Part shown: in pieces, positions 964 through 62,265 of the stretch
How the letters are laid out: the number at the start of each line of letters is the position of its first letter
Numbering within the stretch: the first letter of the stretch is position 1
DNA from: Geosiphon pyriformis uo1
Taxonomy: Eukaryota; Fungi; Glomeromycota
Assembly (NCBI GenBank): GCA_016748015.1
Contig: JAAOMT010000009.1
Span: 1,613,924-1,677,923 of the forward strand
Length of the DNA stretch: 64,000 nucleotides
Reading direction: 5' to 3'
The notes under the pieces: generated by a model
What the model was told of the DNA's origin: nothing
The model's input: only the letters and a program-made list of their open reading frames with translations
Databases searched by the model: none
Program-made: the position numbers and the translations under genes

Positions 964-1525
964 TAAAGAAAATAGCAAAGTTCAAGTTCATAGAATAGTG
1001 TTATGACAAGTTGTATAAAAGAAAAACTTCTCTCTTCGAGAAAATGTATCTTACTTTAGATTTATCACTTAGAATCATTCTTACATACACAAAAAAAAAT
1101 AAAATATCAAATAATTCGAAAAACCAATTTCTTTAAATATTGTACTTGAAAAATTTCCAAAAACCCAACTAACGTTTTGAAATTGATTAGCTACCAATTT
1201 CAGTAAACTGTTAGTAACTCCAGGCCTGGATAAAAAACGTTTCCCTTGACAGAATTCTATTTCTTTTACATTTTCTTTATTTTTCTTTTCTTTTTCTATT
1301 ACAATCATTAGGGTAGCCTACAGACAAGATTCCTGTAGAAGAGTTGACTTTCATAGCAAAATAACTACACATTTTTAGTAAGCTTCCAGATGAGTAATTC
1401 CTGAGAAAAAGTTGATATTTACTACAACGTAACTATACAAAGTAACTGGCACGGTATTACTCATAGAAATATAAAAAATATATTAGCATAATTATTAGCC
1501 AATCAGAAGTAAATGTAGTAAAATG

Positions 1526-1660
1526 TGGAATTCCAGGATTCCTCTCAGGAATTGCAAGATTCCAGGAATTTCAGGATTCCCAACAAGGAATTGCAAAATT
1601 CCAGAATTCTAGGATTCCTCTCAAAGAAATTGCAGGATTCCAGGAATTCCAGGATTCCTG
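1526..1660 (+). repeat. U3 tandem array of the A LTR (caggaattcc/caggattcc units)
   Basis: Visible repeats. About 55 bp shorter in the 3' LTR (10831-10910). Confidence 0.85.
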
Positions 1661-2209
1661 TCGTGAAGAATCGAGAAATTGAGGAATCTCAATTATGTAT
1701 ATATAGCAGTAGTATTAGAAACAGAAAAGACAGAATTGATACCACAGAATTCTTAGCCTAGAAATGCAATCATCAAATAAATAATTATTTTATATCTCCA
1801 TCCAATTCCCCATTATCAACCCTTTATGTTGATAGTAATTGATACTTGACCATGCTAAAACAATAGCTCTTGATCACAGCTATTGATGGGATACTAATCT
1901 GCAAATTGCCTTGGCTTATTTCTTTGCTTTTTTTATTTACTTTTATTTCTTTTTTTCTTTATTTTATTTTGATTTGTTGTTATATACTAATTGAGAAACA
2001 ATTAAGCGCTGAGTTATTGATGTCAAGGATGGCCTGGTAAAAGACCCAGAAATACGGGTAGAATTTTATATATTATTGGATAGCTTACCAAAAAGGCATG
2101 ACTGCCAGACTAAATCCGGCCATCACGCTAAGAAAGAAATTGGGAAAACTCTTGGAAAATATTTCTACTATCGACACTATTGAATCTCTGTCCATTATAC
2201 AAAAGACTC

Positions 2210-2283
2210 AACCAAAACCTTCAGATCCACAACAAAACCTTCAGATCAACCAAAACCTTCAGATCAACCAAAACCTTCAGATA
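2210..2283 (+). repeat. 18-bp tandem repeat (aaccaaaaccttcagatc) x4 in U5 of A
   Basis: Visible here and at 11461-11534. Apparently single-copy in the LTR of C. Confidence 0.85.
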
Positions 2284-2380
2284 TCATACCTTTCGCACAT
2301 CATTCACAAAAGTAGCTTTTGAGCACCAAGTTATAGGTTTGTTATTTAATTCAACAGCAGAAATAATCACCTGTAACATT

Positions 2381-2397
2381 TGGTGCTCCCTGTGAGG
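2381..2397 (+). promoter_or_regulatory. Primer-binding site of A, tRNA-Ile(UAU)-type
   Basis: TGGTGCTCCCTGTGAGG, 2 nt after the LTR. It matches 15/17 the complement of the 3' end of eukaryotic tRNA-Ile(UAU) as I recall it (TGGTGCTCCAGGTGAGG). Confidence 0.8.
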
Positions 2398-2440
2398 TAT
2401 AATTCTACAGAGAACCAGCACTGACAACACCAAACCAAAA

Positions 2441-5400
2441 GTGGCAGAATCAGAAATTATAGGAGCAAACCATTTAGGATTCGCAAAATCTTTATTTCAA
2501 CACTATTGTCAATACTTGGGATTAAACCACAATCATATATCCGCCAAATCAGCCTTCAATTTCTACGTCAACAAAAAGATTTCCTCTTTATTAGGAACAC
2601 CAGTAAACACTGAATCAACAAGAGAAACTTTCTATAAGAAATTAATTCAAAACACCAACTTACTAACAAACCATAATTTTGTATCTATCATCACTGAGAT
2701 CAACAAAAAAATTGAACACCACACTCAACAAAAATATCCAATTACATATGCTAGTAAAGGCAAGAGAAAATTACAAACACCAGTAGTAACATTCCGAAAA
2801 ATACAGCCACTTGCTTGGAAGAAAAATAGAGTTGAATCTCCAAGTAACTCATCATACCACTATACACCTGGAAGTGCCATCGACATATCATCAACTGACA
2901 TGTTTCCATCAACTGTGACATCAGCATTTGGACGATTCCCATTCCAAAGTAGACAAAAAAAAACAGAATTGTTAAGACCATATGGTGAATACTTTGAGGG
3001 ATTTAATTTGCAATTATCAACCTCATCAGGACTTCGATCACCACTGCCTCCACCAGATTTTGGAATCTCTGATCCATAGGAAGCAGCAGAATCAGAAAAG
3101 GAGGAAAAAGAATCAGAGGATCAAGAATTCACTTACTTACACCCGATTCCTGAAAACCCGGAAGTTGAAACCCCAAACATTCAAATTCAGCAACAGTTAG
3201 AAAATCCAGAAATCGAAACTCCGAATATTCGAACGCTGCCAAATCCAAGAAATCAAAACCCTGAATTAATTAATCAGCAAAACTTACCTCCAGTAATCAT
3301 CATTAATCAACTGCCGATTAATCTCATAGCTGAACCCATACAGCAACCACTTCAACTACCACCCCAACAACTACTTCAACAGCCACCACAACCACCTAAC
3401 TTAGACCCAATGGCCTATGCACCCATTGCAAAACTTGACAACTTTACTGGCGAAAAGAATGATGGTCAAATATGGCTTAATGATGTAGAAAAGGCCATCA
3501 CAGCCAATGGATGGAATGATGCTCAAGCAATGCAAGCCATTCCCTACTTTCTCAAGGACACCGCCAATTCATGGTATTAGAGCTTGGTTAATAAACCACA
3601 AGATTTTAATGCCTTCAAAGCGGAATTCCTAAGATACTTCAGCAACAACAATAGCATCAATTACCTAGTCAATACATTCACCACCATGAAACAAGAAGAA
3701 ACTGAAGCAGTCACCACTTACCTGGGATGCTTCCATCAAAACTTGCGCCAAATTCAAGCAATTGACGACGACTATTTCACAGCACCACAGGTACTTAACC
3801 AGTTTATCCATGGCCTACGCAGCAGCATCTTGCAACATGTATGTCTATTGCATCCTGGCACACTTTAAGATGCAGTCACATGTGCCAGAGATTTTGAATC
3901 TGCTGAATCAGAAGTTAACCATGCCCAAGCCGTTAATCTAGTAATGAATGGATCATCTAAATTGGATTCTAAATTGGAGAAGTTTAGTGAATCAATTAAT
4001 AAGAGATTGGAAGGATACTTAGCTGACAATCACGTCATTTATCAGCCTCCATAATGACGCAATAACCAAGAAAATTCCAATCATGGCCAAAATCAACCGC
4101 GTCTATCTTCATCAACTAATCAACAGTGGCAACAGGAAATGCGTATCTGTCACTATTGTGGTAACCAAAAACATATCCAAATTGACTGTCGCCAGTGTTT
4201 AAATAACTAATGATTGGGAAATCAATATCAAAACCCCAATTGCTGGTTCCAAACTCCAAATCATTATCCAAATCAGAGTCAAGACCTATATTGGAATAAT
4301 TACCTGCCAATGACGCAGCAACCAATCTATCAACCGCCAGTATATCAACCTCTGATTTATCAGCCGCAGCCACAAGTAATATATCAACTGCAGCCACAAA
4401 TCATCTATCAATCCCAACCAATTCAAACACTGCCCCAGAACCCAGCTCAAATGACATCAGGCAACTCTTGATCCAGAGTCATTCAAAACTGGAGATCAGC
4501 AATGGTTGTTCACCAACCAATTCTCCGTTTGTTAGACCTATCATCAAGATCACGCACCTGGAATTTGGATATCAGTTGCATCCAAAACCCAAATTCCCAA
4601 CATTATTTAAGTCTTCTGGTTACCCCAGAAAACGCCACATCCAACAACACAGAATCCAATCAGCACGTACCTACCAACACAATTTCACTGGCAACCATCT
4701 CTAGCGATGAATTCCTAGCAGCCATCTTTCCTTTTGAACTCAAAGAAAACACACTAATACCATTATTCAATGGAGCCACCTTCGAAGAGAAACCCATAAC
4801 AGTAATGTACACAAATGCCAGAGTTGATGGTCACTCCATCAAACTCATCTTAGATAGTGAATCAGCTGGCAGCATAATCACATGACAACTTATGGATCAA
4901 TTAGGTCACCAAGTTAATCAAGCTGCCAGTGCCAGAATCATCACAGCTGATAGAACAACCAAAACTCCAATCGGTAAAATCGACGAGTTTCCTCATCAAA
5001 GTTCTAGTAATAAAAACCACTTAATACCAAGCTTTCATTGGTAATGACTGGCTATTCAAAGTCAATGCAACATTAGACTGGAACACCCAGGAACTCCAGC
5101 TAATGTATTAGGGCCAACACATACATGTTCCGGCCACATGTGACCACTTCAAAATGCCTCCAAAAGAGAAACTATTGATCGAACTGGAGGAGAAGAAAAA
5201 AAAGCCTATCTGGGAAGCCTACCAAGTATCATGGGCTGACGAAGAGCACAACAAGCTGCCGCCAATACTCTCCTGGGATGACAACAATAAGAAAAAAGGG
5301 AAACAAAAGGAAGAACTTACCTGAGAAACCGATGACCTGACATGGACTGACAACGACGAGAGCAAACTGACGTCAAGCTGGAAATGGGAAGAAGACAAAG

Positions 5401-8400
5401 AAAATAAAGGGAAAGGAAAAGAAAAAGAGACCACCCAAACCACTACCACTTATAACACCTACACTATTCCACAACGATCTACCTATCGTCGACCTAAGCT
5501 TATATACATCGATTGTGGCAAGAAATTGTCGTTAATGGGTGCATGCTGTGGCGATGATGAGGAATACCACACTGCAACAAAATTCTACTGTCGTCTATGC
5601 TTACTTGAATGCTTCAGATGACTAAAGAGGCAAGGAAAATAGGATAACCAATCTTGTCTCGCTTGTGGGAAGACCCTGCTAGATAAAGGAATGTGGAATG
5701 ACATCCCAGGACATGGAGAAACGTGCAATATGTCATGTCAATACACGATTCTAATAAGTAACTGGGTAAGGAAAAAAACCCCAATAGAAGCAGCCTGGAG
5801 AAGAGCCGTGCAGCGACTGGAGAGTTGTCCACATGATGATGACAAAATTTGGCAAATGGCACTTGCAAAAATCAAAAGAGTGACGCCAGAAGAGATAAAA
5901 ACAATCAAAGACAACCCCCCAGAATCTTTAGAGCTTGACTGGGATGCAGAACCCATCATAAACCTTCTGGATCTGGAACAATTCCACAAACACTACCAAG
6001 AATTAGCACCCACAAGAGAAGAACAAGAACAATGATTAGAGCAGTTAAACATCCAACTATGTCAACACTGCCTAATTTCTTGTGATTTCCAGTATTGTGA
6101 TGAGTGTGATCTCATTTACAATCCACCACCACGCATGATCTACTCAATCCCTGAAGAAGAAGAACCAATTAGCAGCTGCATATTAGAATCAGAATCGCCG
6201 ATCAATTGTGATTCAAACTCTGATGATAACGACAATAACAACGGTTCAAGCTCTGTTCAAATTGGCAATAACGACGAAAACAATTCAGACCCAGATTCAA
6301 AACCCAATGTAAACTATGAACAATACATTGCATTACCAGATCTCTCCAAGGAACAAGAGTTGAAATAGTATAGTGACAATAGGGAAGGTATTATGCCAGA
6401 ACGTGCACACGATATGGATACAGGGTTTGATTTGAGATATTCAGAAAAAGATGCCATCAAATTAGAACTGCATTCACGCACCTGCATTGATCTGAAAATA
6501 GCACTAGAGATTCTGACAACAACAATGGTTCAATTAGCATCTAGGAGTAGCTTAGCAAAAAAAGGGATCAATATAAGAGGAGGAATAATTGACACAGAAT
6601 ATGTAGAAAATATTATTGCCATGCTACAAAATGACTCAGAAAAGGCCTATATAATAGAGCCCAACAAAAAGATAGCACAGACAATATTCCTGCCTCTGAT
6701 TAGAGTAGCTCAGTTAGTGCCAGTGGAAAAAGGGAGGAATTGGGAATAACAGCAAGGGGAATACAAGGATTTGGATCAACAGGTAGAATAGAAGTACCAG
6801 TTAATATGGCAGAAGAAGAAATTGTTGGCCAAGGAGAAATTATCTCAACTGGTCAAGCTATTTCCATTCCACCATATAGCCAGTACATGTTAGCAATAGA
6901 AAAGAAGGAAAAGGAGCAAGAACAGATTTTTGAAGTGGAAGCAACCCTTTGTGAATCAGGAGAGATTGGGTTGATCAATCTCTATATACTAGCCAAAAGC
7001 TATAGCAGCATAAAAATTCCCATCTACAATAACACTGGCAATGTCATCAACATACCAGAAGGAATCATCATTGGATATCTAACCACAGAAATAGAAGACC
7101 AACCACCAAAACCCATTCCAGACTTTCCATAACTTTGTGGATATGTTAACATCACATCACAAACAATCTATGGACGAGACGAATGTTATTTGCTCCAACC
7201 AGAACAATTGGAACAAATGAACATGGGAAACTTAGATCTACTCCAATGTATGCAGCTTAAGATGTTACTCAACAATTTCAATAACATCTTTGCCAGCAAA
7301 AATGAGTTTGGCCGAACTGATATCATCCAGCATCAGATCAAGACTGGAAATGCAATGCCAATCAAACAAAGAGCATACAGAGTGCTACCAGCCAGCCACG
7401 AGATTATTTGTCAAGAGATAAACAGAATGCTTAACAACGGGCTAATTCAACCATCAATGAGCCCATGGTTGTCACCAGTGGTACTTGTCCATAAGAAAAA
7501 TGGAAAAATTCGGTTTTGTGTAGACTACAGGAAACTCAATGATGTAACTCGTGAAGACAGTTATTCAACTCCATGAATACAAGAATTATTTGATGCTTTC
7601 AGTGGGAACAAATGGTTCTCCACATTAGATTTGGACAGTGGTTACTGGCAAGTAGCCATGAATCCAGCTGACAAAGAGAAGACAGCATTTACTACTAGAG
7701 AAGGGAATTTTGAATTTGAAGTAATGCCATTCAGCTTAACCAATGCCCCAGCAACTTTCCAATGGCTAATGGAAATTGTTTATACTGGCTTATTGTGGAA
7801 ATCAGTAGTTGTATACTTGGATGACACCAATGTATTCTCAAAGACGTTTGATGATCATCTTCATCATCTTCAACAAGTGTTCGAAAGACTAAAAAGAGCA
7901 GGACTAAAGTTAAATGCAACAAAGTGCTTTTTTGACAAGACAGAACTCAAATTCTTGAAACACATAGTTAGCAAAGACAGCATCAAAACGGATCCAGAGA
8001 AAATAGAGATAGTAAAAAACTTTCCAGTGCTGACCAATATAACAGAACTGAAATCATTCTTGGGATTCGCCAATTACTATCGTCGTTTTATCAAGAACTT
8101 TTCCAAGATAGCACAGCCACTTAATCAACTGCAAAACAAAAATGCAAAATATGAATGGACAGAAAGTCAACAAGAATCTTTTGATATTCTGAGAAAAAAG
8201 CTCATCCAAACTCCAGTACTGATCTATCCAGATTACAGCAAATCATTCATCATCACCACTGATGCATCCGGCCAAGCATTGGGAGCAGTATTATCTCAGA
8301 GAAGACTGGATGGCAGAGAACATCTAGTAGCATATGCCAGCAGAGGTTTAACACCAGCCAAAAAGAACTATGAAACACCAGAACAAGAACACTTAGCAAT

Positions 8401-8617
8401 ATACTGGGCTGTCATGAAATAGAAAGAATACTTGAGCCAGAAGTTTGAAGTATACACAGATCACAAGGGATTAACATCACTCCAAAAACAAGAATTTGGA
8501 GATGGAAGACAGTCAAAATGGAAAATGGCACTCGCACCATACAATTATACTATACATTACAAAAAGGGAAAAGACAACAAAAATGCTGACGGTTTATTGC
8601 GAATAAGACAAATCTAA
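2441..8617 (+). pseudogene. gag-pol: A ORF1: Gag (N-extension, CA, CCHC)-protease-Cys-rich-dUTPase-dUTPase-like-RT-RNase H polyprotein, multiple stops
   Basis: CHYCGNQKHIQIDC knuckle at about 4147-4190. Protease LILDS(G)SAGS at about 4845. RT motifs IRFCVDYRKLN, SGYWQV, MPF.LTNAP, YLDD. RNase H TTDASG..LGAVL, EHLAIYWA, YTDH, NADGL. Confidence 0.93.
6393..6784 (+). pseudogene. dut: dUTPase domain of A (all five motifs, trimeric type)
   Basis: (A)GFDL, SRSSLAKKG, GGIID.(G)Y.(G), KIAQ.IF and RGIQGFGSTG, with a frameshift near 6740. Confidence 0.92.
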
Positions 8618-8680
8618 GAACATTTCAACCCAAAAATATAATAAAACCAGAACAATACCAACAAAAAATACAACAAAAAG

Positions 8681-10063
8681 ATGAACATACAAAAATATCA
8701 ACAATTGCAACATTATCTAAACACTCAACAGTTCAAGGAGAATTTATCTTATACGGAACGAAGAAGTATTAAACAACAATCAAAATATTTTATCACTCAC
8801 CAAAATATACTTTATTGGAAAAATAGAAGGAATCTAGATTAACCAATCAGAGTAATTATGGAGCCAGAAAAAGAAACAATATTATTCAATATGCACTCAA
8901 ATCCAACAGTAAGACATTTTCACAAAAAAGCAACCATAGAAAAGACTAGAAAAAGATACTATTGGCCATCAATGTACCCAGACATCATTCAATATGTTCA
9001 AAATAATGATGCTTGTCAACAAAGAGGAGGAACAAAACCCAGTGAACCATTAAGACCAATCAAAGTGGAACAATCATTTGACCATATGAGAATTGATTTA
9101 GTTGGACTATTAACAATCACCAGCAGAGGAAACAGATACATAGCAGTAGCTATAGACTATCTTACTAAATGGCCAGAGGCAAAAACAATTCAAAGAGCGG
9201 ATGCAGAATCTGTTGCCGAATTCGTTCATCAGGATTTGATTTGTCGACATGGATGTCCAAAAGAATTATTATCAGACCAAGGAACTTATTTTGTGAACAG
9301 AACATTAACAGAATTAAGCCAAAGATTCGGAATCAAGAGACCATTATCATCACCATACTATCCACAAACCAATGGATTAGTAGAAAGATTCAACAGAACA
9401 TTGTGTGAAGCAATAGCCAAGCTCGGCCAAGAAAACCAGAACGATTGGGATTTGTTCATACCATCAGTACTATTTGCTTATTGGACAATGAAACAGGATA
9501 CTATACAAGCAACACCATTTGAATTAGTATATGGGAGAACAGCAACATTACCAGTAGAAAGAAAAATTAATACATATCCAGCTAAACCAATAACAGAAGA
9601 AAATTTTCAAGAAACATTGCTAAAAAAAACATATGACTTAATAGAAACATTGGAAAACAAATGAAGAAGAGCAGCTGATAATATCCAAAAGTCACAAGAA
9701 ACACAAAAAAAAAGACACAATAGTTAACTACCAAACAAACCAGTTGAATTCAAGATCAGAGACAAAGTATTATTACATTGTACCAAAGTGGAAAAACAAT
9801 AGAGTGGAAAATTTGACCCCAAATGGGACAAACCATTTCACATAGAAGAAATTCTAGGAAATGAAGCTTACAAATTAAGATTGGATAACAAAATTTTAAC
9901 CAAAGCAGCACATAGAGATCGACTAAAACCATATTATAACATCACACTACCATCTACTAATAATATTCCACAATTAGGAGTACAGAGAATACTAGTCCAA
10001 CCAGATAAGATTCCACGAGATCTGGAACCAATCATTACTATCAACAACAACACATTAAATTGA
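8681..10063 (+). pseudogene. int: A ORF2: integrase as a separate ATG-initiated ORF (HHCC, DDE, GPF/Y motif, no chromodomain)
   Basis: ATG at 8681 follows in-frame stops at 8615, 8639 and 8642. Motifs MHSNPT..HF, IDLVG, SDQG, PQTNGLVERFN, KWD.PF. Confidence 0.9.
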
Positions 10064-10087
10064 TCCATCAAAAGAATATATAAAGAC

Positions 10088-10747
10088 ATGGTAGACACAA
10101 CAGAAAATATCAGAAAAATGGAAATTACAGACAACATTTACTTAATAGCACAACAACTCTTTCAATTAATCCAACACCAGGAAATGGAGATTACAATCAA
10201 TCAACAAACCATTCGATATCAAGATACTAGAAAGACATTTCAACTCAGAACACAGAAGAAAACTGAAAATACTGTGGACAAAATCATGGCAAAAATAAAA
10301 TTAGCAATAAAAGAATTGACAAAGGAGTCACTATATCAAGAGTTGACTAAAGAAACTTGGAATTGGTAGATACAACAATTTCCACAAAACTATTGTTATT
10401 TTTACTTGGGACAACACATAAATATCCAGAATCTATATACGGATAAAACAAAGCGATTATTCAACAAAAAAATACTACAACAATTAGAACATTTTGTGGG
10501 AAAGAACAACTTATCCACACAAGCCCGAGCCATATATTGAATACACACAACATTTCAAGATAAACCAGAAATATTGCTCAATAAAGCAATGGATCTGGTT
10601 ACCAGTAATTAATTGGGAAAAATCACCAATGCTCAATTTGAAAAATTATAGACCCAAATAACACAAGTAATTCTCGAAAACAAAATCCAAGAAATACTTC
10701 AAGAGAGGGAATCACATGAGTTAAATTTCGACAGAGCTCAATATTAA
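10088..10747 (+). pseudogene. A ORF3: about 219-codon accessory protein of unknown function
   Basis: One frame from ATG 10088 to TAA 10747, with four internal stops each explicable by transition mutations. Homologues are at the same position in B and X. Confidence 0.75.
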
Positions 10748-10760
10748 AAGGAGAGAATAA
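10746..10760 (+). promoter_or_regulatory. Polypurine tract of A
   Basis: AAAAGGAGAGAATAA abuts the TG of the 3' LTR. Confidence 0.9.
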
Positions 10761-11629
10761 TGTTACTTATAGAAATATAAGAAATATATTAGCATAATTA
10801 TTAGCCAATCAGAAGTAAGTGTAGTAAAATGTGGAATTCCAGGATTCCTCTCAGGAATTGCAGAATTCCAGGAATTTCAGGATTCCCAACAAGGAATTTC
10901 AGGATTCCTGTCATGAAGAATCGAGGAATTGAGGAATCTCAATTATGTATATATAGCAGTAGTGTTAGAAACAGAAAAAACAGAATTGATACCACAAAAT
11001 CCTTAGCCTAAAAACGCAATCATCAAATAAATAATTATTTTATATCTCTATCCAATTCCCCATTATTAATTCTTCATGTTGATAGTAATTGATACTTGAC
11101 CACGCTAAAACAATAGCTTTTAAATTATGGCTATTGACGAAATACTAATCTGCAAATCACCTTGGCTTATTTCTTTGCTTTTTTTATTTACTTTTATTTC
11201 TTTTTTTCTTTATTTTATTTTGATTTGTTGTTATATACTAATTAAGAAACAATTAAGCACTGAGTTATTGATGTCAAGGATAGTCTGATAAAAGACCCAG
11301 AAATACAGGTAGGATTTTATATATTATTGGATAGCTTATTAGAAGAGCACAACTGCCAGACTAAATCCAGCCACCATGCTGAGAAAAAAATTGGGAAAAC
11401 TTTTGGAAAATATCTCTACTATCGACACTATTGAATCTCTGTTTATTATACAAAAGACTCAACCAAAACCTTCAGATCCACAACAAAACCTTCAGATCAA
11501 CCAAAACTTTCAGATCAACCAAAACCTTCAGATATCATACCTTTCGCACATCATCCACGAAAGTAGCTTTTGAGCACCAAGTTATGGGTTTGTTATTTAA
11601 TTCAACAGCAGAAATAATTACCTGTAACA
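10761..11629 (+). repeat. 3' LTR of A (869 bp)
   Basis: TGTTAC...TGTAACA, a direct repeat of 1455-2378. Confidence 0.95.
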
Positions 11630-11793
11630 ACAGAATTGGCCATTCCACTTATAAGTCCAGCAGTTCAAATTATAGGAGATAATTTGAAAATAAATTCAGT
11701 TATTAAAGGTTCAAACACTTCCTATAATCGTGAATTAACAGCATTACAACAAACATACAAGAGCTAAGAAGAGACCAAAAACCTCTGGTAACA

Positions 11794-12765
11794 GTAGTAA
11801 TGTTTGGTGTTCTACTTTAGCCTTTCAAGTTTGTATGTTTTTTGCAGTGTTAGTGTTATCAGTCTCTGAAAATCTATTTTTATACGTAAATTTACCTGTT
11901 GAGTTCTTTGGTTATAAGACACAGAGTTTATCTTTTGTTAATTGCAACTTTTCCATCAATGTGAATGTTCTCCTCTGAGCTAACAAGTGCAGTCATTAGA
12001 GTTCGGCATTGTCTTTTCATCTTTCTGGTAAGCTAACAAAATAATGTTAATATCCAAAACTGTAGGGGGAGCTTCCCTCTTTTACCAGACTATTACGAAG
12101 TCTATTCCAAAACAGTCAATTTTCTAATTTTGTCACTTCACCAAAAATAAAAAAAATGAAAATGAAAAGAAAATAAGAGAAAATAAAAAGAAAAAAAAAA
12201 TTTAGTTTTTGTCAATCACCATGATCAAGAGCAATTGGTCCAAGTTGTTAAGGTTCGAAACATTTATGCTAATGGCATCTGTTCTAGAATAGAAGTAATA
12301 AACAATGATTCAATTAAAACATAAAAGTTTAGAGAACATAGGTTTGTGATTTTGGAATATTTGATTTATTTTGGAATGTGTGTATAGACTAAAATATGAG
12401 AGAGTAAAGGAAAATTGATTCTTGTCTAGCTATCTGTTCTCTTTCTAACTTCTACAACTACTCATTTTTATACATTCTTTTGGTTTTACAGGATTGCTTT
12501 CAATTATTACATTATTACTAGCTATTGCTTTGTTATTTCTGTTATTGCTTCATTATTCTATGTTATTGCTAATTATCTTATGTTATAACGTGTTATCTGG
12601 TATTATTATATGCTATTCTGTGTTATCCTACATTATAATGTGTTATCCTGCATTATAATGCATTATTCTACATTATTGCATATTATCTTGTGTTATGTCA
12701 CGTTTTGTTCACATTTTGGTTACATTTTTCTCATAACTTGGATCAGTTTTTCTACTTAGATAACA
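11794..12765 (-). repeat. 3' LTR of B (interrupted by X near its U5 end)
   Basis: Direct repeat of 20848-21806. U3 tandem array at about 12500-12700. Confidence 0.92.
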
Positions 12766-12778
12766 TTATCTCTCTCTT

Positions 12779-13513
12779 TTAAAATTGAGCTTCTGTGAAA
12801 CTGTATGTATCTGTTATTATGACTTCGTTCATGTAATGTTTGATAGTTGTCTCGAGTATTGCTTTTTGTAGGTCTTTGAACTGTTGATTGGTTATTCATC
12901 CTATGTTGTTAACTATTATGGTTTTCATAGAATCATTTAGTAGTACATTTGGACAATGTTGGAAGACAGCATATAGTTGGTATGCTGCTTTGTAATGTAG
13001 GATTAAGTTGTTTCTTCCTACAAATTTTTTTATCTGTTGCATTGCTTCTTTGTTGAATGTTCTCTGGCTGAGGTTTTTATATGATGTTTTCAAGTCAAGC
13101 TGCTCTCTAATTTTGTAGAACCAATAGGCTGGCAGAAGTCTTTCTTTCCATTCCTGGGTGTTGTCTAATGTCCACTCCCCTGTTTTGGGAAGTTCAGTCT
13201 CACGAGATAAAGATTCTTTAATTTCTTCTATCTTGGGGGCCAAGTATCTTCTTTTGTAACCTTTTTTTTGTTCCTTCTCTCTTTCTTCTCCACCTTCTGC
13301 CTGAAAGCAATTTTTTCTTTAACATTGCTTTTTGGGCAGTGTGTAGGGAAAGAAATGTTTAGTTCTAGTTGAACTCTCGTCCTTCTTTCTCCTGCTCTTA
13401 TCTTTGTATTATATCTTTTTTTTATCAATTGTTATTTCTATTTAAGCAGAAGACTATTGAATTGCATCAAACAGTTGTTTCGAAAGTTGTAAAATTTGAT
13501 CTGAAAGGTCTAT
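12779..13513 (-). pseudogene. B ORF3 (homologue of A ORF3)
   Basis: (M>I)DLSDQILQLSKQLFDAIQ...EITI; YWFYKI...FVGRNNL..YKAAYQLYAVFQHCPNVLLN...IG*ITNQQF...FTEAQF*. Confidence 0.75.
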
Positions 13514-13597
13514 GTTAAAAAGGTTCTATTGATTCTTGCTGTTTTTCTAGATGTTATATATACTTGAATTTTCCAATTAAATACTCATGTATCACTG

Positions 13598-14965
13598 TTA
13601 TGTTTCGATGATAATAATTGGTTCCAGATCTCATGATATATTTTTTGGTTTGATTAATAAAATTTGTGTTCTTAATTAAGATACTGATGACAATGACTGC
13701 TGTTTTGCATGATAAATTTTTAATTGGTTTCTATGAGCTACTTTCTTTAGAATCTTGTCTTTCAATCATAATTTGTAAGCTCCATTTCCTAAAGCTTCTT
13801 GTATGTGGAATAGACTGTCCCACTTTGGGTCAAACTTTTCACTTCACTATTTCTCAGCTTTTGTATGATGTAACAGTACTTGGTCTCCAATCTTGAATTT
13901 TATTAGTTGTTCAAGCAAGCAATTGTTATGTCTTTTCTTTTGCCATTTTTGAATGTTACTAATGTTATCAGCTACTGTTCTTTAGTTGTTTTCTAATGTT
14001 TCCATTAGCTAGTACATTCTTTGGTGTAAGATAGCTTCAAAATTCTCTTCAGTAATTGTTTCTGTTGAGTAGGACAATATTTCTTGTTTGATAGGTAACA
14101 TGGTTTTTCTTCTATAAACTAGTTTGAATGGTATAAATTGTGTCGTATTTTGCTTTAGTGTTTGATATGCAAAGAGTACTGAAGATATGAATAAGTCCCA
14201 TTTTTGTTCATTTTCTTGACTTATTTTAGCTAGTGCTTCACACAGGGTTTGGTTAAACTGTTCTACCAGTCCGTTTATTTGTGGGTAGTATGGTGATAAT
14301 AAAGAATGTTTTATATTAAACCATTGGCTTAATTCTATTAATGTATTGTTGACAAAATGCGTTCCTTGATTAGATAACAATTCTTTCGGACATTCATGTC
14401 TACAAATTAGGTCTTGATGTATAAACTCGGCAACTGTTTTGGCATCGGCCACTTGAATTGCTCTGGCTTCTGGCCATTTTGTAAGATAGTCAATGGCTAC
14501 AGCAATATACTGATTTTCTTTGGATGTAATTGAGAAAGGACCAACCAAGTTGATTTCAATTCTATCAAATGAATTTCCAACTGGAATGGGTCAAAGTAGT
14601 TCTGTTGATTTTGCTTCTTCTCTCCTTTGGCATAAATTACAATTAAGAACGTATTTGAAAATATCCTTATACATCATTGGCCAATAGTATAGGTTGCTTG
14701 TTCTTCTCAGAGTAGCATCTTTGTTGAAGTGTTCTGCTATTGGATTTGAGTGCATGCTATATAATATGGTTTCTTTTTCACTGTTTTTTATCAATCATTG
14801 TGGGGTGAGATGATTTCATTGTTCTTGACAGTAGAGTTGGTTATTTTGAATAAAGTAGTTTTTTGCTTGTTTCCATATAGTATTCTGTTTCTGTTGAGAT
14901 AAGATCTCCTTGAAATGTAGTGTCAATAGGTACTGATGTATTTGTTGATAGGTGGTTGTGTCCAT
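13598..14965 (-). pseudogene. int: B ORF2: integrase, separate ORF
   Basis: ATG (MDTTTYQQI) lies 10 nt after the RNase H TGA, in another frame. HHCC and DDE motifs are in track ORFs 14591-14794 and 14009-14548. Confidence 0.88.
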
Positions 14966-14975
14966 GGGTCTGAGG

Positions 14976-17900
14976 TCAGATTTGTGGCATTCTCGATAAA
15001 CTGTCAGCATTGGTGTTCTTGGATCCTTCTTTGTAGTGGACTTTGAGTGGGAATTGTTGCAAATAAGTGCTTCATCATGCATATTTTCTTTCCAGCTGTG
15101 GATTATTGAGTAATTAGATGAATTTCTTATGATCAGTATAAAAGTTGAATGGTTAACTGAGATAATATTTCCAAGTCTGTACAGCCCAATAAATGGTAAA
15201 ACATTCCAAGTCTGTTGTACTATATACTTTTTCTGCTGGACTTGTGCTATAACTAGCATATGTAATTGGATGTTCTCTTTTGTCTAGTCCTATTTGAGAT
15301 AAAATGGCTCCTAGTACATTTTTTGAGGCATCTGTAGCAATGATAAAACATTTGGTAAAATTAGAGTAGATCAATATTGAAGAGATGATCAACTGCTACT
15401 TGAGATAGATGAATGCTTTCTGCTGGTCTTTTTTCCATAAGTATAGTACATATTTGGATAACAAGTAATGGAGAAGTTTTGCAATGGTGGAAAATCTCTT
15501 AATAAATTTTTAATAGTATCCTGCTAATCCCAAAAATTCTCATAATTCTCGTAAGTTGATTGGGGCTGGAAAGTCTTTGACTTTTTGGATTTTGTCTGGA
15601 TTGGGCTTAACTCCATCTTTTTCAATCATGTGCCCTAAGAATTTTAGTTCGGTTTTTCTGAAGAAGTATTTGTCAGGATTGAGTTTTAATCTGGCATTTT
15701 AAAGGCACTCGAACATTTGTTGAAGGTAGAACAAATGGTCGTCAAATGTTTTTGAAAACACGTTGGTGTTGTCTAGATAAACTACAACTAATTTCCAAAG
15801 GATTCCTTTGTATACTACATCCATGAAGTGTTGAAAAGTGGCAGGAGCATTACGGAGTCTAAAAGGCATCACATTAAATTCGAAATTACTGTCTTGAGTG
15901 GTAAATGCTGTTTTTCTTTTGTCTTTGGAGTCTATTTTAACCTGCCAATAACCACTGGCTAAATCTAATAACAAGAACCATTTCTTTTTCTCTAGATTGT
16001 CCAGAATTTCCTGGATGAGGGGAATGGGATAACTATCTCCTCACGTAACACTGTTTAGTTTCCTGTAGTCCATGCAGAATTGCACTTTTCTATTTTTCTT
16101 GGTGATCAAGACTACTGGAGAGGACCACAGGCTTAATAATTCTTTAATTAAGCCATTATCAAGCATTCATTGCACTTCTTGCTTAATTAAGTTATCACCA
16201 GATAGAAGTACTCAGTAGGTTCATTGCTTAATAGGTTGAGCATTTCTCATGTCAATTTGGTGTTTCACAATGTCAGTATGTCTGAACTCATTTTCACTGG
16301 CAAAGACATTGGCATACTGTTTTAGAAGAACTTTGAATTACATTTGTTGCAGGATACTTAAGTTTCCTAAATTCAATTTATTGATCTCCTCTGGTGTAAA
16401 CAGATAACTTTCCTTTGGCAAATTCTATACTTGGGATGTAATGTCACAGAATAAGAACAATTATGCAAAATCTGGAATAGACTGGGGTTTCTTGGAATTC
16501 TGAATATCTGTGGATATAGAACTGATGAGAGTTCCCTCAGAAATTTCTATAACATCTTCAGTCAGATTGTAAATGGGGATTTTGAAGTGTTTATGAGCCT
16601 TTGTTGGGAGATATAAGTTAGTGACATCCACTAGGGAACAGATTTCAGGGTCAGCTTCAAATATTAGGGCTTGGCCTTGAATCTTCCAATTCACTTTAAG
16701 AATATATTGTCAATAGAAAGGAATGAAAATGACAGTGTTGGTGTAGATAAGTTTTACCTGGTCATTGTCTTCTTCCGCAAGATTGACTGCTATATTTCCT
16801 CTTCCACTTGATCCAAATCTACTGATTCCTCAGGCAGTGAGACCTAATTCTGCTTGGGTTGTGACCAGAATTAGTTGGGGTAATTTGACTAAGGGCAGAA
16901 AGAGAGCTTGGGCAATTTTTTCATGGGATTCTATTTTGTAAGGCTTATTTGAATTGTTCTGTAGCATCACAATGATATTTCCAGTATATCTGGCATTGAT
17001 GATTTCTCCTTTTACATCAATTCTTTTCTTTGCGAGGCTAGATCTAGATGCTACTTATATCATAGTACTAACTGAAATTTTTAATGCTATTTTGAGATCT
17101 ATGCTTACTAGGAAATGTAGGGCTATAACTAGAGATGATTGTCCAGGGTGCCTTAAATCAAAACCAGCATTAGTGTCATGTGTTTTTTCAGGGCAGATTT
17201 TTTTTTCATTGTCACTGTACTATCTTAATTCTAATTCTTTAGAGAGGTCAAGATAAGTGAAATACTGCTCTGTTTCTGTAGTCTCATTTGGCTCTTGAAA
17301 TGGCCTGTCCTCAATTATTAATTTGGTTTCTTCTTCGAGTTCTGGTAGTTCATCAATAAGATATAATGTTCTCAGCAGTAGATTAAGCATGAGATCACAT
17401 TTGTTGCAGTACTAGAAATGGCAAGGGATTAAGCAATGATCACATAATTTTGTGTTTAGGTCAGCTAGTCTTTGTTCCTGTTCTTTTTGGGTCAGGGCCA
17501 ATTCTTGGTATCAATCCTGAAATGCATCCAGGTTATTTGTGAAGAAATCTTTGATAATGTAATTGGGTCCATCATATTTGGATACAAATGGATTTTCTTT
17601 GATTTTTTGTATTTCGCTGAGTGTGGCACCTTCAGCTTTAGCACTTGCTATTCTCCATATTTCATGTTCATTATGCAGGTAACCATCCAATCGATTAAGT
17701 GCTTATCTCCAGGTGTCCTCAATCAGAGTTCTCTTTCATACTCAATCATTGATCAAGATGGTATATTGACACACTTCATCACATGTCCCTTTTCTGCCAG
17801 GTACATCATTTCAGAGCCCTTTATCTAGTAGGCTTTTGCCACAGGCAAGACATGACATATTGTCCCATTTGCCTTGTTGTTTTGGTCATCTAAATTTTTT

Positions 17901-20758
17901 CAACACACAGGGTCTACAATAATATTTGGTGGTAGTTGGCCATTTTTTATTATCTCTGATACATGCACCCATCAAAGATAGCTTCTTTCCACAATTAATA
18001 CAGATTAGCTTTAGAGGTTGATAAAATAGGTTTCTTTGATCGCTAATTGGGTAGCCTTATAATGAAGATTCTTTTTTAACTCTTTCTTTTCCCTTTTTTT
18101 TTAGGTTGGTGGTGGGGGTAACTCTGTTCGGAGATCATCTGCCCAGGAAACTTGATAAATTTCTATGATTGGCAGTGGTATTGTGTCCTCAAATTCGATC
18201 AATGGTTGTTCTCTGTCTTGAGTTTTGAAATGTCCACACATAGCAGGAACTCGGACATGCTGCCTATTGAACATGATTTGGAGCTCTTGGGTGTTCCAAT
18301 CACAAGTAGTGTTGGCTTTTAATAACCAATCATTTCCTACAAGGGCTTGATATTAAGTTGCTTCCATAATGAACACTTTGGTAAGGATTTGAATTCCATT
18401 GATTTCAAAAGGAAAGTTGTCAATTTCCTCTATTAGAGTTTTTGTGTTTCCATTCACGGTGATTATTCTAGTGGTGACAGCATGATTCACTCAGTGACCT
18501 AATTGATTCATGAGTTGTTTTGTAATTATACTACCAGCTGATCCACTGTTGAGTATTAGCTTAATGTCTAAATTTTCAATTCTAGCTTTAGCATACATGG
18601 CTGTTATGAGTTTATCCTGGTTAATGGCAGCTTTACTGAATAGGCTAGTGGTATACAGATTATCCACATCAAAGGAGAAGATAGTGGTAAGAGTGGTGTT
18701 TTCTGTAATAATAGTGGGTGGAATAGTATGGGGGGTTTGGTTTTGACTTAAAGGGTTGAGAAGTTCTTCTACATCCTTTTTTTCTAAAAGTGTAGGGCTA
18801 TCAAAATCTTGGGTTTCATTGAAACCAAGATAGGAGACTTGATTTGGGTATTCAGATGGTACTGGTTGAGACAGGACATAATCATGATTGATGGATTGCA
18901 CTAGTCCACTATTAGTTTGCATCTGATTATTACTGGGGTTCCTCCATTTTTGGTTGTAATCAATTGCATGAGGTTTGAGTTGGTTATAAATGGGGTTTTG
19001 GTACTGAGAGGCTGCTTAAGCCAATGGCTGTAATGGCTGATAATAGTTCAAAGGCAGTTGTTGATTATACATGAATGGTTGTAAGTATTGGGGCAGTGAA
19101 TATTGGAATGGGTATTGTGGTCCCGTAGCCTGAGGATATCTTGGTTGTTAATATTAATTTCCTCAGTTCTGGTCTACTAATTTCTGTCAGCAATTCTGAG
19201 CAATATGTCCAGGTTTTTAACAGTAGTAACAGTTGTGAGGATCAGATCTCCAAGGTTGTTGCTGTTGCTGATGGTTCTGGTGCTGTGGGTATCTGCTGCT
19301 GTTGTTATTTTCTCTCTGTTGTGGTGGTTGGTAGATTTCTGTGGTTCCGGCTAAGAATTCCTCAATTTTTTGAGTTAATTTCTTACTTAATTGGGTGATC
19401 TTTGCGTCAATATTAGAGGCTCCATTGATGGCCAAGTTGACGGCTTGAGTATGGTTCGCTTCTTGTTCTGCAGACTCAAAATCATGGGCAAGAGTGACTG
19501 CTTCTTGTAGGTTTGTTGGATGGCGAGATCTCACTGATTGTAAGATACTACTTCTTAACCCCTTAACAAATTGATTAAGAATTTGTCTGAGGGTGTAATA
19601 GTCCCTCTTGATTGCCTGAACCTGTCAAAAAATTTGATTAAACCATCCAAGATAAGTGGTCATAGCTTTATGGTTTTTTTGTTTTACTATGCTGAACTGA
19701 TTTTATAATCTGATGAGTGTATTAGGGTCACAAAAATATTGTAGAAAAGCAAGCTTAAAAGCAGCAAAGTTGGTTGGTTTTTTTGTCAGACTTTGGTACC
19801 ACAAGTTTGCAGTTCCTGTTAGGAAAAATGGCAGTGCTTAAATAGCTCTATTATCATCCCAATTGTTGGCAGTAATTGCTTTCTTGGCTTTTGCAATCCA
19901 TAAGTACATGTTGTCTTCTTCACCAGAGAATTTTTCCAACTTGGCAATATCTCTGTAAGCCATAATTTGGTTGATGGGTAGAGGGCTCGAGAAGATTGGT
20001 GTCCGTGTTTTAGAGAGTTTTTCTGGTGCAAGTTCTGGTTGTTTTCTTTTGTCATTAGAACCAATAGGTTGTAAAATAGCTGTTTCTTCCATAAAGAGGT
20101 TTGCAGTTTCTGCTAAGATTTGTTCTATTAGTGGTTTCCAAGTTGACATATTCCTGTCTGTTTTACTAATTGTGGGGATCAGATTTCCAAACAACAATCT
20201 ATATTCTCCTAAAGATTTGGTTCAACTGTAATGATCCCAAGAGTGTAGATTTCCAGAAGTTTGTGGTGTTTCTGACTGGGTTTCCAGGGGTGGGTTGAAT
20301 ACAATTCTACTTTGGGGTGTCTGATGGTATAATGGAGTTGTTGGAAAAAGGAACCTTGGTTTCTTGTTAACTGTGGATTGAGTTTGTTCCCTTCTGGTTG
20401 TTGAATTGGATCCCAACTCATTTTTTTCTAAGTCTAATTCCTCTGGTTGGTTTACTTGAAGAAAACGTTTTTCCATGTAATGTTTAATGTCTGTATCGAC
20501 TATACAAAGGGTTTCAGTGATGGTTCATGTTGTGGTGTTTGTCGAGTATCCTAATAATTTGTGGTGGATCTGTTTACCAAGCTTTCTTGTATCTGTTGAT
20601 TGGCCTAACAAACAGTCGATTTTTGTATTGATGTAGTTGCAAAAATTACCTTCTGCATTAATGGTTTTAGCTAGTATTCCTAAGTCTTCTTGTAAGTATT
20701 AAAATAATGCTTTTTCATACAGGGAATAGTCCTTTCTTATTGTTCTAATAGTCACCAC
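14976..20758 (-). pseudogene. gag-pol: B ORF1: Gag-PR-Cys-rich-dUTPase-RT-RNase H
   Basis: Track ORFs show Gag (AKLEKFSGEED..W, RSRHPTNLQEA), PR (LILNSGSAGS), RT (LDLASGYWQV, YLDN) and RH (IATDAS). dUTPase AGFDL...ASRSSL...RGI.(G)FGSSG at about 16800-17200. Confidence 0.92.
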
Positions 20759-20801
20759 TTTTGTGAATATCTGGGGTGCTCTGTCTCTGTGGATTTTATA
20801 A

Positions 20802-20818
20802 CCTCATAAGGAGCACCA
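20802..20818 (-). promoter_or_regulatory. PBS of B (tRNA-Ile(UAU)-type)
   Basis: Reverse complement is TGGTGCTCCTTATGAGG, 2 nt from the LTR. Confidence 0.8.
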
Positions 20819-20820
20819 AA

Positions 20821-21806
20821 TGTTACAGGTAGAATTTAGTGTTTATGGTGATAATGTTTGGTACTCTACTTTAGTCTTTCAAGTTTGTATGTTTTTTGCA
20901 GTGTTAGTGTTATCAGTCTCTAAAAGTCTATTCCTGTACATGAATTTATCTGTTGAGTTCTTTGGTTATAAGGCACAGAGTTTATCTTTCATCAATTGCA
21001 ACTTTTCTGTTGATGTGAACATTCTCCTCTGAGCTAATAAGCACAGTCATTAGGGTTCAGCATTGTCTTTTCACCTTTCTGGTAAGCTAACAAGATAATA
21101 TTAATATCCAAAACTGTAGGGGGAGCTTCCTTCTTTTATCAGACTATCACAAAGTCTATTCCAAGACAGTTAATTTTTCAATGTTGCCACTCCACCAAAA
21201 ATAAAAAAAAGAAAACAAAAAGAAAATAAGAAAAAATGAAAAGAAAAAAAAAATTAGTTCTTGTCAATTGCCATGATCAAGAGCAATTGGTCCAAGTTGT
21301 TAAGGTTCGAAATGTTTATGCTAATGGCATCTGTCCTAGAATAGAAGTAATAAACAATGATTCAATTGAAACATAGAAGTTGGGAGAACATAGATTTGTG
21401 ATTTTGAAATATTTGATTTATTTTGGAATGTGTGTATAGACTAAAATATGAAAGAGTAAAGGAAAATTGATTCTTGTCTAGCTATTTGTTCTCTTTCTAA
21501 CTTCTATGACTACTTGTTTTTATATATTCTAGAATTGCTTTCAATTGTTATGTTATTACTAGCTATTGCTTTGTTATTTCTGTTATTGCTTCATTATTCT
21601 ATGTTATTGCTAGTTATCTTATATTATAACACATTATCTGGCATTATTACATGCTATTCTGTGTTATTCTATGTTATAACGTGTTATCCTGTATTATAAT
21701 GTATTATTCCATGTTATTGCATATTATCCTGTATTATGTCACATTTTGTTTATGTTTTGGTCACGTTTTTCTCATAACTTGGATCAGTTTTTCTATTCAG
21801 GTAACA
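20821..21806 (-). repeat. 5' LTR of B (986 bp)
   Basis: TGTTAC...TGTAACA termini on the minus strand. Confidence 0.93.
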
Positions 21807-40254: not shown

Positions 40255-40797
40255 AAATTTGGCAATGGATTCTGCATCTGCTCTTTGAATTGCTTTCGCC
40301 TCTGGCCATTTAATGAAATAGTCCATGGCTACTGCTATATATCTGTTTCTTCTGCTGGTAATTGTTAATGATCTGACTAAATCAATTCCAATCCGGTCGA
40401 ATGGTTGTTCCACTTTGATTGGTCTTAATGGTTTACTGGGTCTTGTTCCTCCTTTTCACTGACAAGCATCACAATTTTGAACATATTGGATGATGTTTGG
40501 ATGCATTGATGGCCAATAGTATCTTTTTCTGGTTCTTTCTATGGTTGCTTCTTTGTGAAAGTGTTCAGCTGTTGGATTTGAGTGCATGTTGAATAATATT
40601 GTCTCTTTCTTTAACTCTGTAATTACTCTGGTTGGCTGATCTGGATTCCTCTTATTTTTCTGATAAAGTATATTTTGGTGAGTAATAAAATATTTTAATT
40701 GTTGTTTGATCCTCTTTTGTTCTATTTGAGATAAATTCTCCTTGAACTGTTGAGTGTTTATATAATGTTAAAGTTGTTGATATTTTTGTATGTTCAT
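40255..40797 (-). pseudogene. int: C integrase ORF, N-terminal part
   Basis: ATG (MNIQKYQ) follows the same stop-containing spacer as in A. Confidence 0.85.
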
Positions 40798-40857
40798 TTT
40801 TTGTTATTTTTTGTTGGTATTGTTCTGGTTTTATTATATTTTTGGGTTGAAATGTTC

Positions 40858-43800
40858 TTAAATTTGTCTTATTTGTGACAAACCATCAGTATTTTCATTG
40901 TCTTTTCCTTTTTTGTAATGTATAGTATAATTGTATAGTGCAAGTGCCATTTTCTATCTTAACTGTCTTCTATCTCTAAATTCTTGTTTTTGGAGTAATG
41001 TTAATCCCTTGTAATCTGTATATACCTCAAACTTCTGGCTCAAGTATTTTTTTCATTTCATGACAGCCCAGTATATTGCTAAGTGTTCTTGTTCCAGTGT
41101 TCTATAGTTCTTTTCAGCTGGCATTAAACCTCTGCTGGCATATGCTACTGGATGTTTTCTGCTATCTGGTCCTCTCTAAAATAATACTGCTCCCAATGCT
41201 TGGCCGGATGCATCAGTGGTGATAATGAATGGTTTGCTGTGATCTGGATAAATCAGTACTGAAGCTTGAATGAGCTTTCTTTTTAAAATGTCAAAAGCTT
41301 CTTGTTAACTTTCTGCCCATTCATATTTGGTATTCTTGGTTTGCAGTTGGTTGAGTGGCTGTGCTATTTTGGAAAAGTTCTTGATAAAACATCAATAGTA
41401 GCTGGTGAATCCCAAGAATGATTTCAGTTCTGTCATATTGGTCAGCACTGGAAAGTTCTTTACTATCTCTATTTTCTCTGGATCTGTTTTGATGCCGTCT
41501 TTGCTGACTATGTGCCCTAAGAATTTTAATTCTGTCTTACCAAAGAAGCACTTTGTTGCATTTAACTTTAGCTCTGCTCTTCTTAGTCTTTCGAACACTT
41601 GTTGGAGATAATGAAGATAATCATCAAATGTTTTTGAGAATACATTGGTGTTGTCCAAGTATACAATTACTGATTTTCACAATAAGCCAGTATAGATGAT
41701 TTCTATTAGCTGTTAGAAAGTGGCTGGTGCGTTGGTTAAACCAAATGGCATTACTTCAAATTCAAAATTCCCTTTTCTTGTGGTGAATGCCATCTTCTCT
41801 TTGTTGGCTGAATTCATGGCTACTTGCCAGTAACCACTATCTAAGTCCAACGTTGAAAACCATTTGTTTCCACCAAAAGCATCGAATAATTCCTATATCT
41901 GTAAAGTTGGATAGCTGTCTTCACGAGTTACACTATTGAGTTTTCTGTAGTCCACACAAAATTGGATTTTTCTATTCTTCTTATGGACAAGTACCACTAA
42001 TGATGACCATGGGCTCATTGATGGCTGAATTAGCCCATTGTCAAGCATTCGGTTTATCTCTTGACGAATAATCTTGTGGCTGACTGGTGGCACTCTGTAT
42101 GCTTTTTGTTTAATTGGCATTGCATCTCCAGTCTTGATCTGGTGCTGGATAATGTCAGTTTGGCCAAACTCATTTTCGCTAGCAAAGATGTTATTGAACT
42201 GGTTGAGCAACATCCTGAGTTGCATACGTTGGAGTGGATCTAAGTTTCCCATGTTTATTTGTTCCAATTGTTCTGGTTGGAGCAAATAACATTCACTTCA
42301 TCTGTATATTGTTTGTGATGTGATATTGACATATCCACAAAGTTGTAGAAAGTCTGGAATGAGATTTGGTGGTTGATCTTCCATTTTAGTGTTTAAGTAT
42401 CCAATAATGGTTCCAGCTGGTATTTCTATGACATTTCCTGTATTATTGTAGATGGAAATTTTGATGTGGCTGTAATCTTTGGCTGGTATGTAGAGATTGA
42501 TAAGTCCAACTTCTTCTGATTCACAAAGACTGGCTTCTGCTTCAAAAATTTGTGCTTGGTCTTTTTCCTTCCTTTCTATTGCTAGCATGTACTGGTTATA
42601 TAGTGAAATGGAAATAGCTTGACCAGTTGAGATAATTTCTCCTTGGCCAACAATTTCTTCCTCCGCTATATTAACTGATATATCTATTCTACCCATTGAT
42701 CTGAATCCCTGTATTCCTCTCGCTGTTATTTCTAATTCCTCCCTCTTTTCCACTGATACTAACTGAGCTACTCTAACCAGAGGCAGGAATATTGCCTGTG
42801 CTATTTTTTTGCTGGGCTCTATTACATAAGTCTTTTCTGAGTCATTTTGTAGCATAGCAATGATATTTTCTATATATCCTGTGTCAATTATTCCTCCTCT
42901 TATATTAATCTTTTTTTTTACTAAACTACTCTTAGATGCTAATTAAACCATTGTTGTTGCCAGAATTTCTAGTGCTACTTTCAGATCAATGCAGGTGCGT
43001 GTATGTGGTTTCAATTTGATGACTTCTGTTCCCGGATATCTCAGATCAAATCCTGCATCAGTATCGTGCACACATTCTGGCATAATACCTTTCCCATTGT
43101 CACTATACCATTTCAACTCTTGTTCCTTGGAGAGATCTGATAGTGCAATGTATTGTTTATAGTTTAAATCAGAGTTTGAATCTGAGTTTGGATCGTCTTT
43201 GTTGTCATTGCCATTTTGAATGGAGCTGGAACTAGTGTTTTTGTCATCATTATCAAAGTCTGAATCACAATTGATCAGCAATTCTGATTCCGATGCACAG
43301 CTGCTGATTGGTTTTTCTTCTTCAGGGATTGTATAGATCATGCATGGTGGTGGATTGTAAATGAGATTACAATCATCACAATATTCAAAGTTACTGGGAA
43401 TTAAACAATGGCAACACAGTCTTGTATTTAACTGTGCTAGCCATTGTTCTTGCTCTTCTCTAGTGGGTGCCAAGTTTTGGTAGTGTTCATGAAACTCTTC
43501 TGGTTCCAGAAAATTTATGACTGGCTCAGCATCCCAGTCAAGCTCAATGGGTTCTGGTGGGTTGTTTTTAATTGTTCTGATTTCTTTTGGCAACGCGCCT
43601 TCAATTTTGGTGATTGCCATCTACCATAATTCATTGTTGTTGTGGGGACAACTGTCCAATCACTGTACAGCTCTTCTCCAGGTGGCTTCTATAGGTGTTT
43701 TTTTCTTGACCCAGTTGCTAATGAGGATCGTGTATTGGCAGAACACGTCGTACATTCCTCCTCTCCCCAGAATGTCATTCCACATTCCTTCATTGAGGAG

Positions 43801-47081: not shown

Positions 47082-47143
47082 TTTTGGATGATGTTTGTTG
47101 GTGCTGGTTCTCTGTAGAATTATACCTCACAGAGAGCACCAAA

Positions 47144-62199: not shown

Positions 62200-62265
62200 A
62201 ATAAAAAAATAAAATAAATAAAATAAAATAAAATAAAATAAAAAATAAAATAAAATAAAAATAAA
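62200..62265. repeat. (AAAAT)n microsatellite expanded in the E LTR
   Basis: Directly visible. Corresponds to the A-rich tract of the B LTRs. Confidence 0.8.

Follow-up and report, generated by a model that had tools for sequence, protein, structure and literature searches.

Additional open reading frames that lie on the sense strand between pol and the 3' LTR (aORF-3S) are a known class, and those reviewed, from plants and insects, are mostly env-like, some of them with transmembrane segments; the integrase, in the usual layout, lies inside pol (PMC7264820). Fungal Gypsy elements with a dUTPase between protease and RT have also been described, with an additional ORF of unknown function named in a figure legend, and the passages describing them contain neither a separate integrase nor a protein like the one reported below, the likeness being drawn from the description only (PMC2864245). 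As for proteins that may serve as models of how such a gene could work, foamy-virus Tas, itself made from an internal promoter, acts on the LTR and on this internal promoter (PMC8670036, PMC4929722, PMC13220597); the VANC anti-silencing proteins of the Arabidopsis VANDAL elements are element-encoded, exposed to methylation pressure and directed at repeats which are family-specific and vary from one related element to another (PMC5735166); and caulimovirus TAV/P6 is described as a polycistronic translation factor of a reverse-transcribing element (PMC5734791, PMC5902531).

The window, i.e. the whole stretch of 64 kb analysed here, comes from the fungus Geosiphon pyriformis, in whose genome LTR elements are reported to make up 41.2% (PMC11952901). 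It has a CpG observed/expected ratio of 0.21 and is densely filled with Ty3/Gypsy elements, three of which (A, B and X) carry, between integrase and polypurine tract (PPT), the gene called ORF3 below:

about 1455-11629, + strand: element A, with dUTPase, RT, RNase H and integrase matches
1455-2378, + strand: 5' LTR of A, with a PBS-like sequence after it
6369-8617, + strand: dUTPase, RT and RNase H of A (Pfam PF00692, PF00078, PF17919)
10088-10747, + strand: ORF3 of A, one frame, with an ATG at 10088, a second ATG at 10118 and a stop ending at 10747
10761-11629, + strand: 3' LTR of A
11798-21806, minus strand: element B
11798-12765, minus strand: 3' LTR of B, which holds a repeat array of its own (the 5' LTR lies at about 20829-21806)
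12779-13513, minus strand: ORF3 of B, 244 codons
window start, + strand: element X, the third element, 3' end only
3-674, + strand: ORF3 of X, cut on its 5' side by the window edge, running through the PPT and ending inside the 3' LTR
643-1454, + strand: 3' LTR region of X, as far as the point where A is inserted

The first-pass annotation had described the three elements as having different LTRs and a homologous protein at the env position. The LTRs are indeed different, with no mutual blastn match of 150 nt or more, and the homology is borne out by profile comparisons (probabilities of 99.5 for A-B, 94.3 for A-X and 93.1 for B-X) and by BLASTP (E values of 4e-21, 1e-4 and 3e-7, respectively), the proteins matching over most of their length even though synonymous sites are saturated. 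It is also frame-specific: the coding frame pair was the best of 36 in every comparison, with scores (229, 98 and 95) reached by none of 1000 shuffles. A profile search of the window found no fourth copy. What the annotation had not mentioned is that stops interrupt every one of the three copies: A has four in-frame stops and 87% identity to the intact protein P0004, B has lost its start codon, holds five stops and is 72% identical to the intact P0122, and X, with a frame starting at 3 and stopping at 672-674, contains three stops. At three of the four stops in A, another base is found in 88-99% of the contig depth (run X1); the fourth is absent among the 40 listed of 317 rows. Ungapped, near-full-length ORF3s account for 40 of 90 database proteins for the X subfamily X1, 14 of 20 for the X subfamily X2, 2 of 115 for A and 1 of 10 for B.

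Concerning the age of the gene, the proposal of an old accessory gene under selection stands, on two grounds: the protein is similar over its full length at saturated synonymous sites, and an intact copy occupies the same slot on an unrelated metagenome contig (L001). Between A and B, synonymous differences in RT and integrase are saturated (pS 0.75-0.80), and ORF3 can still be aligned over 194 codons with 32% identity. Codon-shuffled partners gave a mean alignment of 54 codons and, in 200 trials, a best score of 62 vs. the 229 observed; since synonymous sites are saturated, it is this excess of alignment length and score that argues for selection on the protein. The dN/dS comparison which had been suggested for this purpose turned out to be uninformative: by NG86, dN is 0.60-0.85 and dS near 2 or undefined, and although second codon positions are more alike than third ones, codon-shuffled partners produce the same pattern (0.45/0.59/0.38), so that the codon-position and NG86 signal was rejected as evidence of selection. 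ORF3 diverges faster than the enzymes of the element, its identities being 25-35%, as against 45-57% in the C-terminal part of the integrase and 49-65% in RT/RNase H and the integrase core.

The 115 matches (of 359 candidates) to ORF3 of A and the best 120 of 225 matches to a B+X profile are all G. pyriformis hypothetical proteins, one Geosiphon entry of 147 aa being 100% identical to ORF3 of B across 55% of the query length. When 1.84 billion representatives were searched with a profile, 126 matched, and 28 of the 95 new ids from this search are less than 55% identical to four references. Twenty of these profile matches were looked up: 17 are from Geosiphon, two further families included, three are unnamed metagenomic proteins, and no named gene from any other species is among them. 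A second search, with these metagenomic proteins as queries, gave 12 matches among 2034 candidates, seven of them without a name. In a tree of 15 ORF3 proteins, which carries long-branch warnings, A and B group with the two further Geosiphon families, and X and the metagenomic proteins stand apart from them. A profile scan of metagenome contigs found no relatives; in viral contigs, a degenerate motif scan returned four stretches, none of them ORF3-like once translated, and an integrase scan found no relatives.

The DNA behind one metagenomic relative is contig L001 (3713 nt; CpG ratio 0.21), with an RT-RNase H 49-52% identical to those of A and B. RT-RNase H ends in a stop and is followed by an integrase whose ATG lies 24 nt on, an AT-rich spacer of 316 nt and an ORF3 of 230 aa (P0284), which is unbroken, lies in a frame different from that of the integrase and extends through the PPT into an end that resembles an LTR.

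The position of the integrase is common to this contig and to the window elements:

8681-10063, + strand: integrase of A, encoded by a cistron of its own past the RNase H stop at 8615-8617
13598-14965, minus strand: integrase of B, likewise in its own cistron and shifted by one base from the RNase H frame
8615-8681, 14965-14978, about 40531-40593, about 49170 and, in L001, 772-799: RNase H-integrase junctions

In each of the five elements whose RNase H end was found (A, B, a sister copy of A called C, the element at 48000-51900 and L001), a stop closes RNase H, and in four of them an integrase ATG follows 10-63 nt past the stop, in the same or in a different frame. A one-base deletion in the spacer of A, present in about 42% of the contig depth, indicates that the frame of the integrase relative to RNase H is free. 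The usual Gypsy layout is violated in this respect. The domain order (RT, RNase H and integrase in A, with a protease match in C) is that of Ty3/Gypsy LTR retrotransposons, as are the LTRs, which come in pairs and are accompanied by PBS-like and PPT sequences; an integrase outside pol was taken as a departure from a usual feature and not as excluding membership. The split integrase of the first-pass annotation is real, though by itself it does not point to a role of ORF3 in packaging. Integrase and ORF3 genes are neighbours in A, B, the X-family predictions and L001, with a gap of 24-84 nt in A and B vs. 316 nt in L001, and many database ORF3s start with a Met of their own. This lineage is thus built of three cistrons, ORF3 being a separate third gene with its own ATG, and the last two cistrons would then need subgenomic RNAs or reinitiation.

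At its 3' end, ORF3 meets a conserved stretch of DNA:

10726-10760, + strand: conserved DNA motif and PPT of A, corresponding to about 610-642 in X and 12766-12800 in B

A C-terminal F-x-x-A-Q-x followed by a stop at the PPT had been proposed for all three elements. A and B do read in this way, but X and L001 use another frame: in X, the protein does not end at 631, its frame crossing the PPT into the LTR and stopping at 672-674. Such an LTR-entering tail is present in 69 of 110 X-family database proteins, in which ORF3 has 235-239 aa. Since A, B, X and L001 resemble one another in the sequence directly 5' of the PPT and read it in differing frames, the motif is likely to be a cis-acting DNA element rather than a protein motif. 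Basic charge, too, fails as a family trait, with pI values from 5.2 to 9.9 and a negative net charge in three of the four metagenomic members. In 23 intact X proteins, E-to-K is the commonest change (103 of 572), an excess which fits G-to-A decay. As a whole, the earlier observation holds for the homologous ORF3, and not for the end of X, the shared C-terminal motif or the general basic charge.

Short repeats are clustered in every LTR, preceding a TATA-like box, and are not the same from family to family:

10832-10940, + strand: A-specific repeat cluster, ahead of the TATA-like box (about 1526-1690 in the 5' LTR)
852-942, + strand: X-specific repeats, in the 3' LTR region of X

The 6-mers selected are present in their own LTR in seven to eight (A), five (X) and four (L001) copies and in other LTRs in none or one; the B 6-mer also has three copies in the X LTR. 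A 9-mer of A has 12 near-matches, every one of them in the LTRs of A; the internal 8.3 kb is free of them. When the motif was chosen freely, the count was reached by none of 300 shuffles for the 3' LTR of A, its 5' LTR and C, by 3 for X, by 8 for B and by 84 for L001: the enrichment is strong in A and C, modest in X and B, and absent in L001. Family-specific repeated cis motifs, as in VANC or Tas systems, are present, with a strength that varies by family. In L001, a 7-mer picked from the LTR occurs three times there and twice in the spacer, 170-200 nt upstream of ORF3, vs. none in 2139 coding bases, and none of 1000 spacer shuffles gave two copies. A and B, with spacers of 24-84 nt, have no copy of their own repeat upstream of ORF3, so this arrangement is seen in one of three testable elements. 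Transitions make up 59 of 59 and 92 of 94 differences within the LTR pairs (1455-2378 vs. 10761-11629; 11798-12765 vs. 20852-21806), as expected under cytosine-deamination pressure, which makes LTR divergence a poor clock here; transposon CG methylation has been reported in the related Rhizophagus (10.1101/2021.03.30.436303). As a separate observation, the five copies of the X 6-mer account for 5 of the 11 CpGs in the X LTR region (748-942), in a window otherwise strongly CpG-depleted.

An AlphaFold2 model of P0284 (32 sequences) is mostly helical with a mean pLDDT of 80.5, and 84-96 by ten-residue block for residues 61-200; an N-terminal helix and hairpin are joined by a loose linker to a helical core. 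The positions that are conserved concentrate in helices 100-119 and 126-160, and a conserved Gly and Asn lie in the turn connecting two helices in this confident model, where a helix-turn-helix-like pair is predicted at residues 126-160. Basic residues occupy core positions 131, 143, 151, 155 and 182 in at least six of nine family representatives. The gene had been called non-env and free of transmembrane segments, and both descriptions agree with a highest 19-residue hydropathy of 1.33 in all ten intact members; the product is predicted to be soluble.

Sequence searches of Pfam and PDB with ORF3 gave no match past the curated threshold, as did PHROGs, with a best E value of 0.0012 for a family of unknown function. 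A first model (pLDDT 59.7) had no significant match in PDB, BFVD or the wide VIA set, and a second had none in BFVD, the wide VIA set or a Foldseek shortlist (best Z 4.7 among 48,161 chains), the N-terminal helix-hairpin module entering these searches as part of the whole model. Two leads did not pass shuffle controls. Three ParB/KorB DNA-binding domains were among the top 50 structural matches (Z 3.3-3.6), but the profile comparison with the ParB/KorB HTH (PF17762) stayed at chance level (probability 0.1; score reached by 20 of 100 shuffles); DUF1016_N (PF17761) matched one of eight proteins at a Pfam E value of 0.12, a score reached by 4 of 60 shuffles. In the ESM Atlas, the nearest neighbour of P0284 is a cluster given as a 190-aa hypothetical protein, with 98 members, all eukaryotic and mostly Mucoromycota (score 0.94, 176 of 256 features). 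The recognition value of the query, 2186, falls short of the 2300 set by the tool, and no usable match came from P0004, which leaves this cluster a weak lead.

Anti-silencing, nucleic-acid binding and integrase or RNA packaging were the functions initially named for ORF3, and among these the family-specific LTR repeats make us lean towards DNA binding. The reading preferred here, tentatively and as a possibility rather than a probability, is that ORF3 serves its own element as a sequence-specific activator of the LTR or as an anti-silencing protein: it would be made from a subgenomic RNA, in L001 perhaps from an internal promoter, enter the nucleus, bind the short LTR repeats of its own family and thereby activate the element or protect it from methylation. 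The separate cistron, the faster divergence of ORF3 than of the enzymes, the family-specific repeats, the 7-mer shared by LTR and pre-ORF3 spacer in L001, the LTR transitions and the predicted helix pair with its basic positions all agree with this. Against it stand the lack of a significant match to a DNA-binding fold (best Z 4.7, profiles at chance), the negative charge of three of four metagenomic members, the upstream repeat in one of three testable elements, the uneven repeat enrichment and the three B 6-mers in the X LTR. Moreover, LTR repeats are commonly bound by host factors, which would explain a shared motif without ORF3. VANC proteins are encoded by DNA transposons; no family match to them was found, and the LTR repeats are candidate targets of ORF3. 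Tas, which the LTR repeat upstream of ORF3 in L001 brings to mind, is retroviral, and no sequence or fold link to it was found. Under another reading, unlikely in our estimation, ORF3 would act on RNA or translation in the manner of TAV, promoting reinitiation at the integrase cistron or shielding RNA from decay or silencing. TAV activates reinitiation and suppresses silencing (PMC5734791), and the stop before the integrase in five of five elements with an ATG 10-63 nt on in four, the free frame deduced from the spacer deletion in A, and the gap of only 24-84 nt before ORF3 in A and B would suit such a factor. Yet TAV/P6 is a plant-virus protein without a sequence match to ORF3, nor did Pfam or PDB sequences match any protein of this kind; splicing or internal promoters could substitute for reinitiation after a long ORF, and the family-specific LTR repeats would be left unexplained.

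An integrase outside Gag-Pol would need another route into particles, and ORF3, its neighbour in A, B, the X-family predictions and L001, might be its partner in particle or nuclear delivery or in target choice; this comes after the RNA/translation reading in probability. ORF3 evolves much faster than the integrase surface to which it would have to bind. Placed next, and judged improbable, is the capture of a member of a wider Mucoromycota hypothetical-protein family, with a role set there and no tie to the LTR repeats. Predicted proteins of Glomeromycota have a common helical domain of similar spacing, and the Atlas cluster points the same way, but the recognition value of the query lies below the mark, P0004 had no usable match, and the 20 profile matches looked up (17 Geosiphon, three unnamed) included no other species' named gene. 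That ORF3 is instead the C-terminal domain of the integrase, reached by read-through or masked by mutated stops, is very improbable: the two share a frame in A, with one stop between them, and in B, and stops arise readily in these copies, but the 316-nt spacer and different frame of L001 contradict it for the family as a whole, the B linker holds 4 extra stops in 28 codons vs. 10 in 455 in the integrase, and many database ORF3s have their own Met. The location from integrase to PPT is that of env, and an env-like membrane or movement protein is the least probable reading of all, given the maximum hydropathy of 1.33 in ten of ten members and the absence of a family match in the searches above.

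Compared with the described systems, ORF3 resembles aORF-3S in being a sense ORF between integrase and 3' LTR, common to many copies and several families and without a known function, and differs from the reviewed ones in being fungal, devoid of a transmembrane segment, placed after a separate integrase and able to overlap the LTR (PMC7264820). Extra ORFs in this slot and fungal Gypsy elements with a dUTPase are thus already known; of the ORF3 family and of a Gypsy layout with a free integrase and a third gene, no account was found in the literature searched, outside of which lay most subscription journals, Repbase and supplements. Lokiretroviruses, considered as a precedent for a separate integrase, are ruled out by the description in PMC7947760. 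A broader reading, which we regard as doubtful, is that this lineage reached the layout of complex retroviruses independently, with gag-pol minus integrase, a free integrase and an ORF3 activator or anti-silencer of new fold co-evolving with the LTR repeats; if so, a self-amplifying regulator would have helped LTR elements to fill about 41% of this fungal genome. Several hundred G. pyriformis "hypothetical proteins" (at least 235) are pieces of ORF3, and their recognition corrects the annotation. Intact copies of a candidate regulator and its candidate target repeats would allow a direct test of retrotransposon escape from methylation in early-diverging fungi, and the free integrase gene raises a separate testable question, that of its translation and packaging route.

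Several other features of the window deserve mention. In A, the protease-RT interval (about 5200-7130) is a long stretch, Cys-rich in parts, without a Pfam match at 5643-6368; the dUTPase at 6369-6749 is followed by another frame without a match at 6704-7132. At 11630-11797, the 3' LTR of B, which lacks about 25 nt, meets a short stretch starting like another LTR. A 3'-truncated A-family copy (40256-48020) lies next to the integrase of another Gypsy element, a more distant one (48000-51900), and neither has an ORF3 left in the window. Finally, inverted repeats at 53657-53984 and 63678-64000, 76-77% alike and about 10 kb apart, surround a truncated B-like copy (54162-62808) and are possibly the ends of another transposon.
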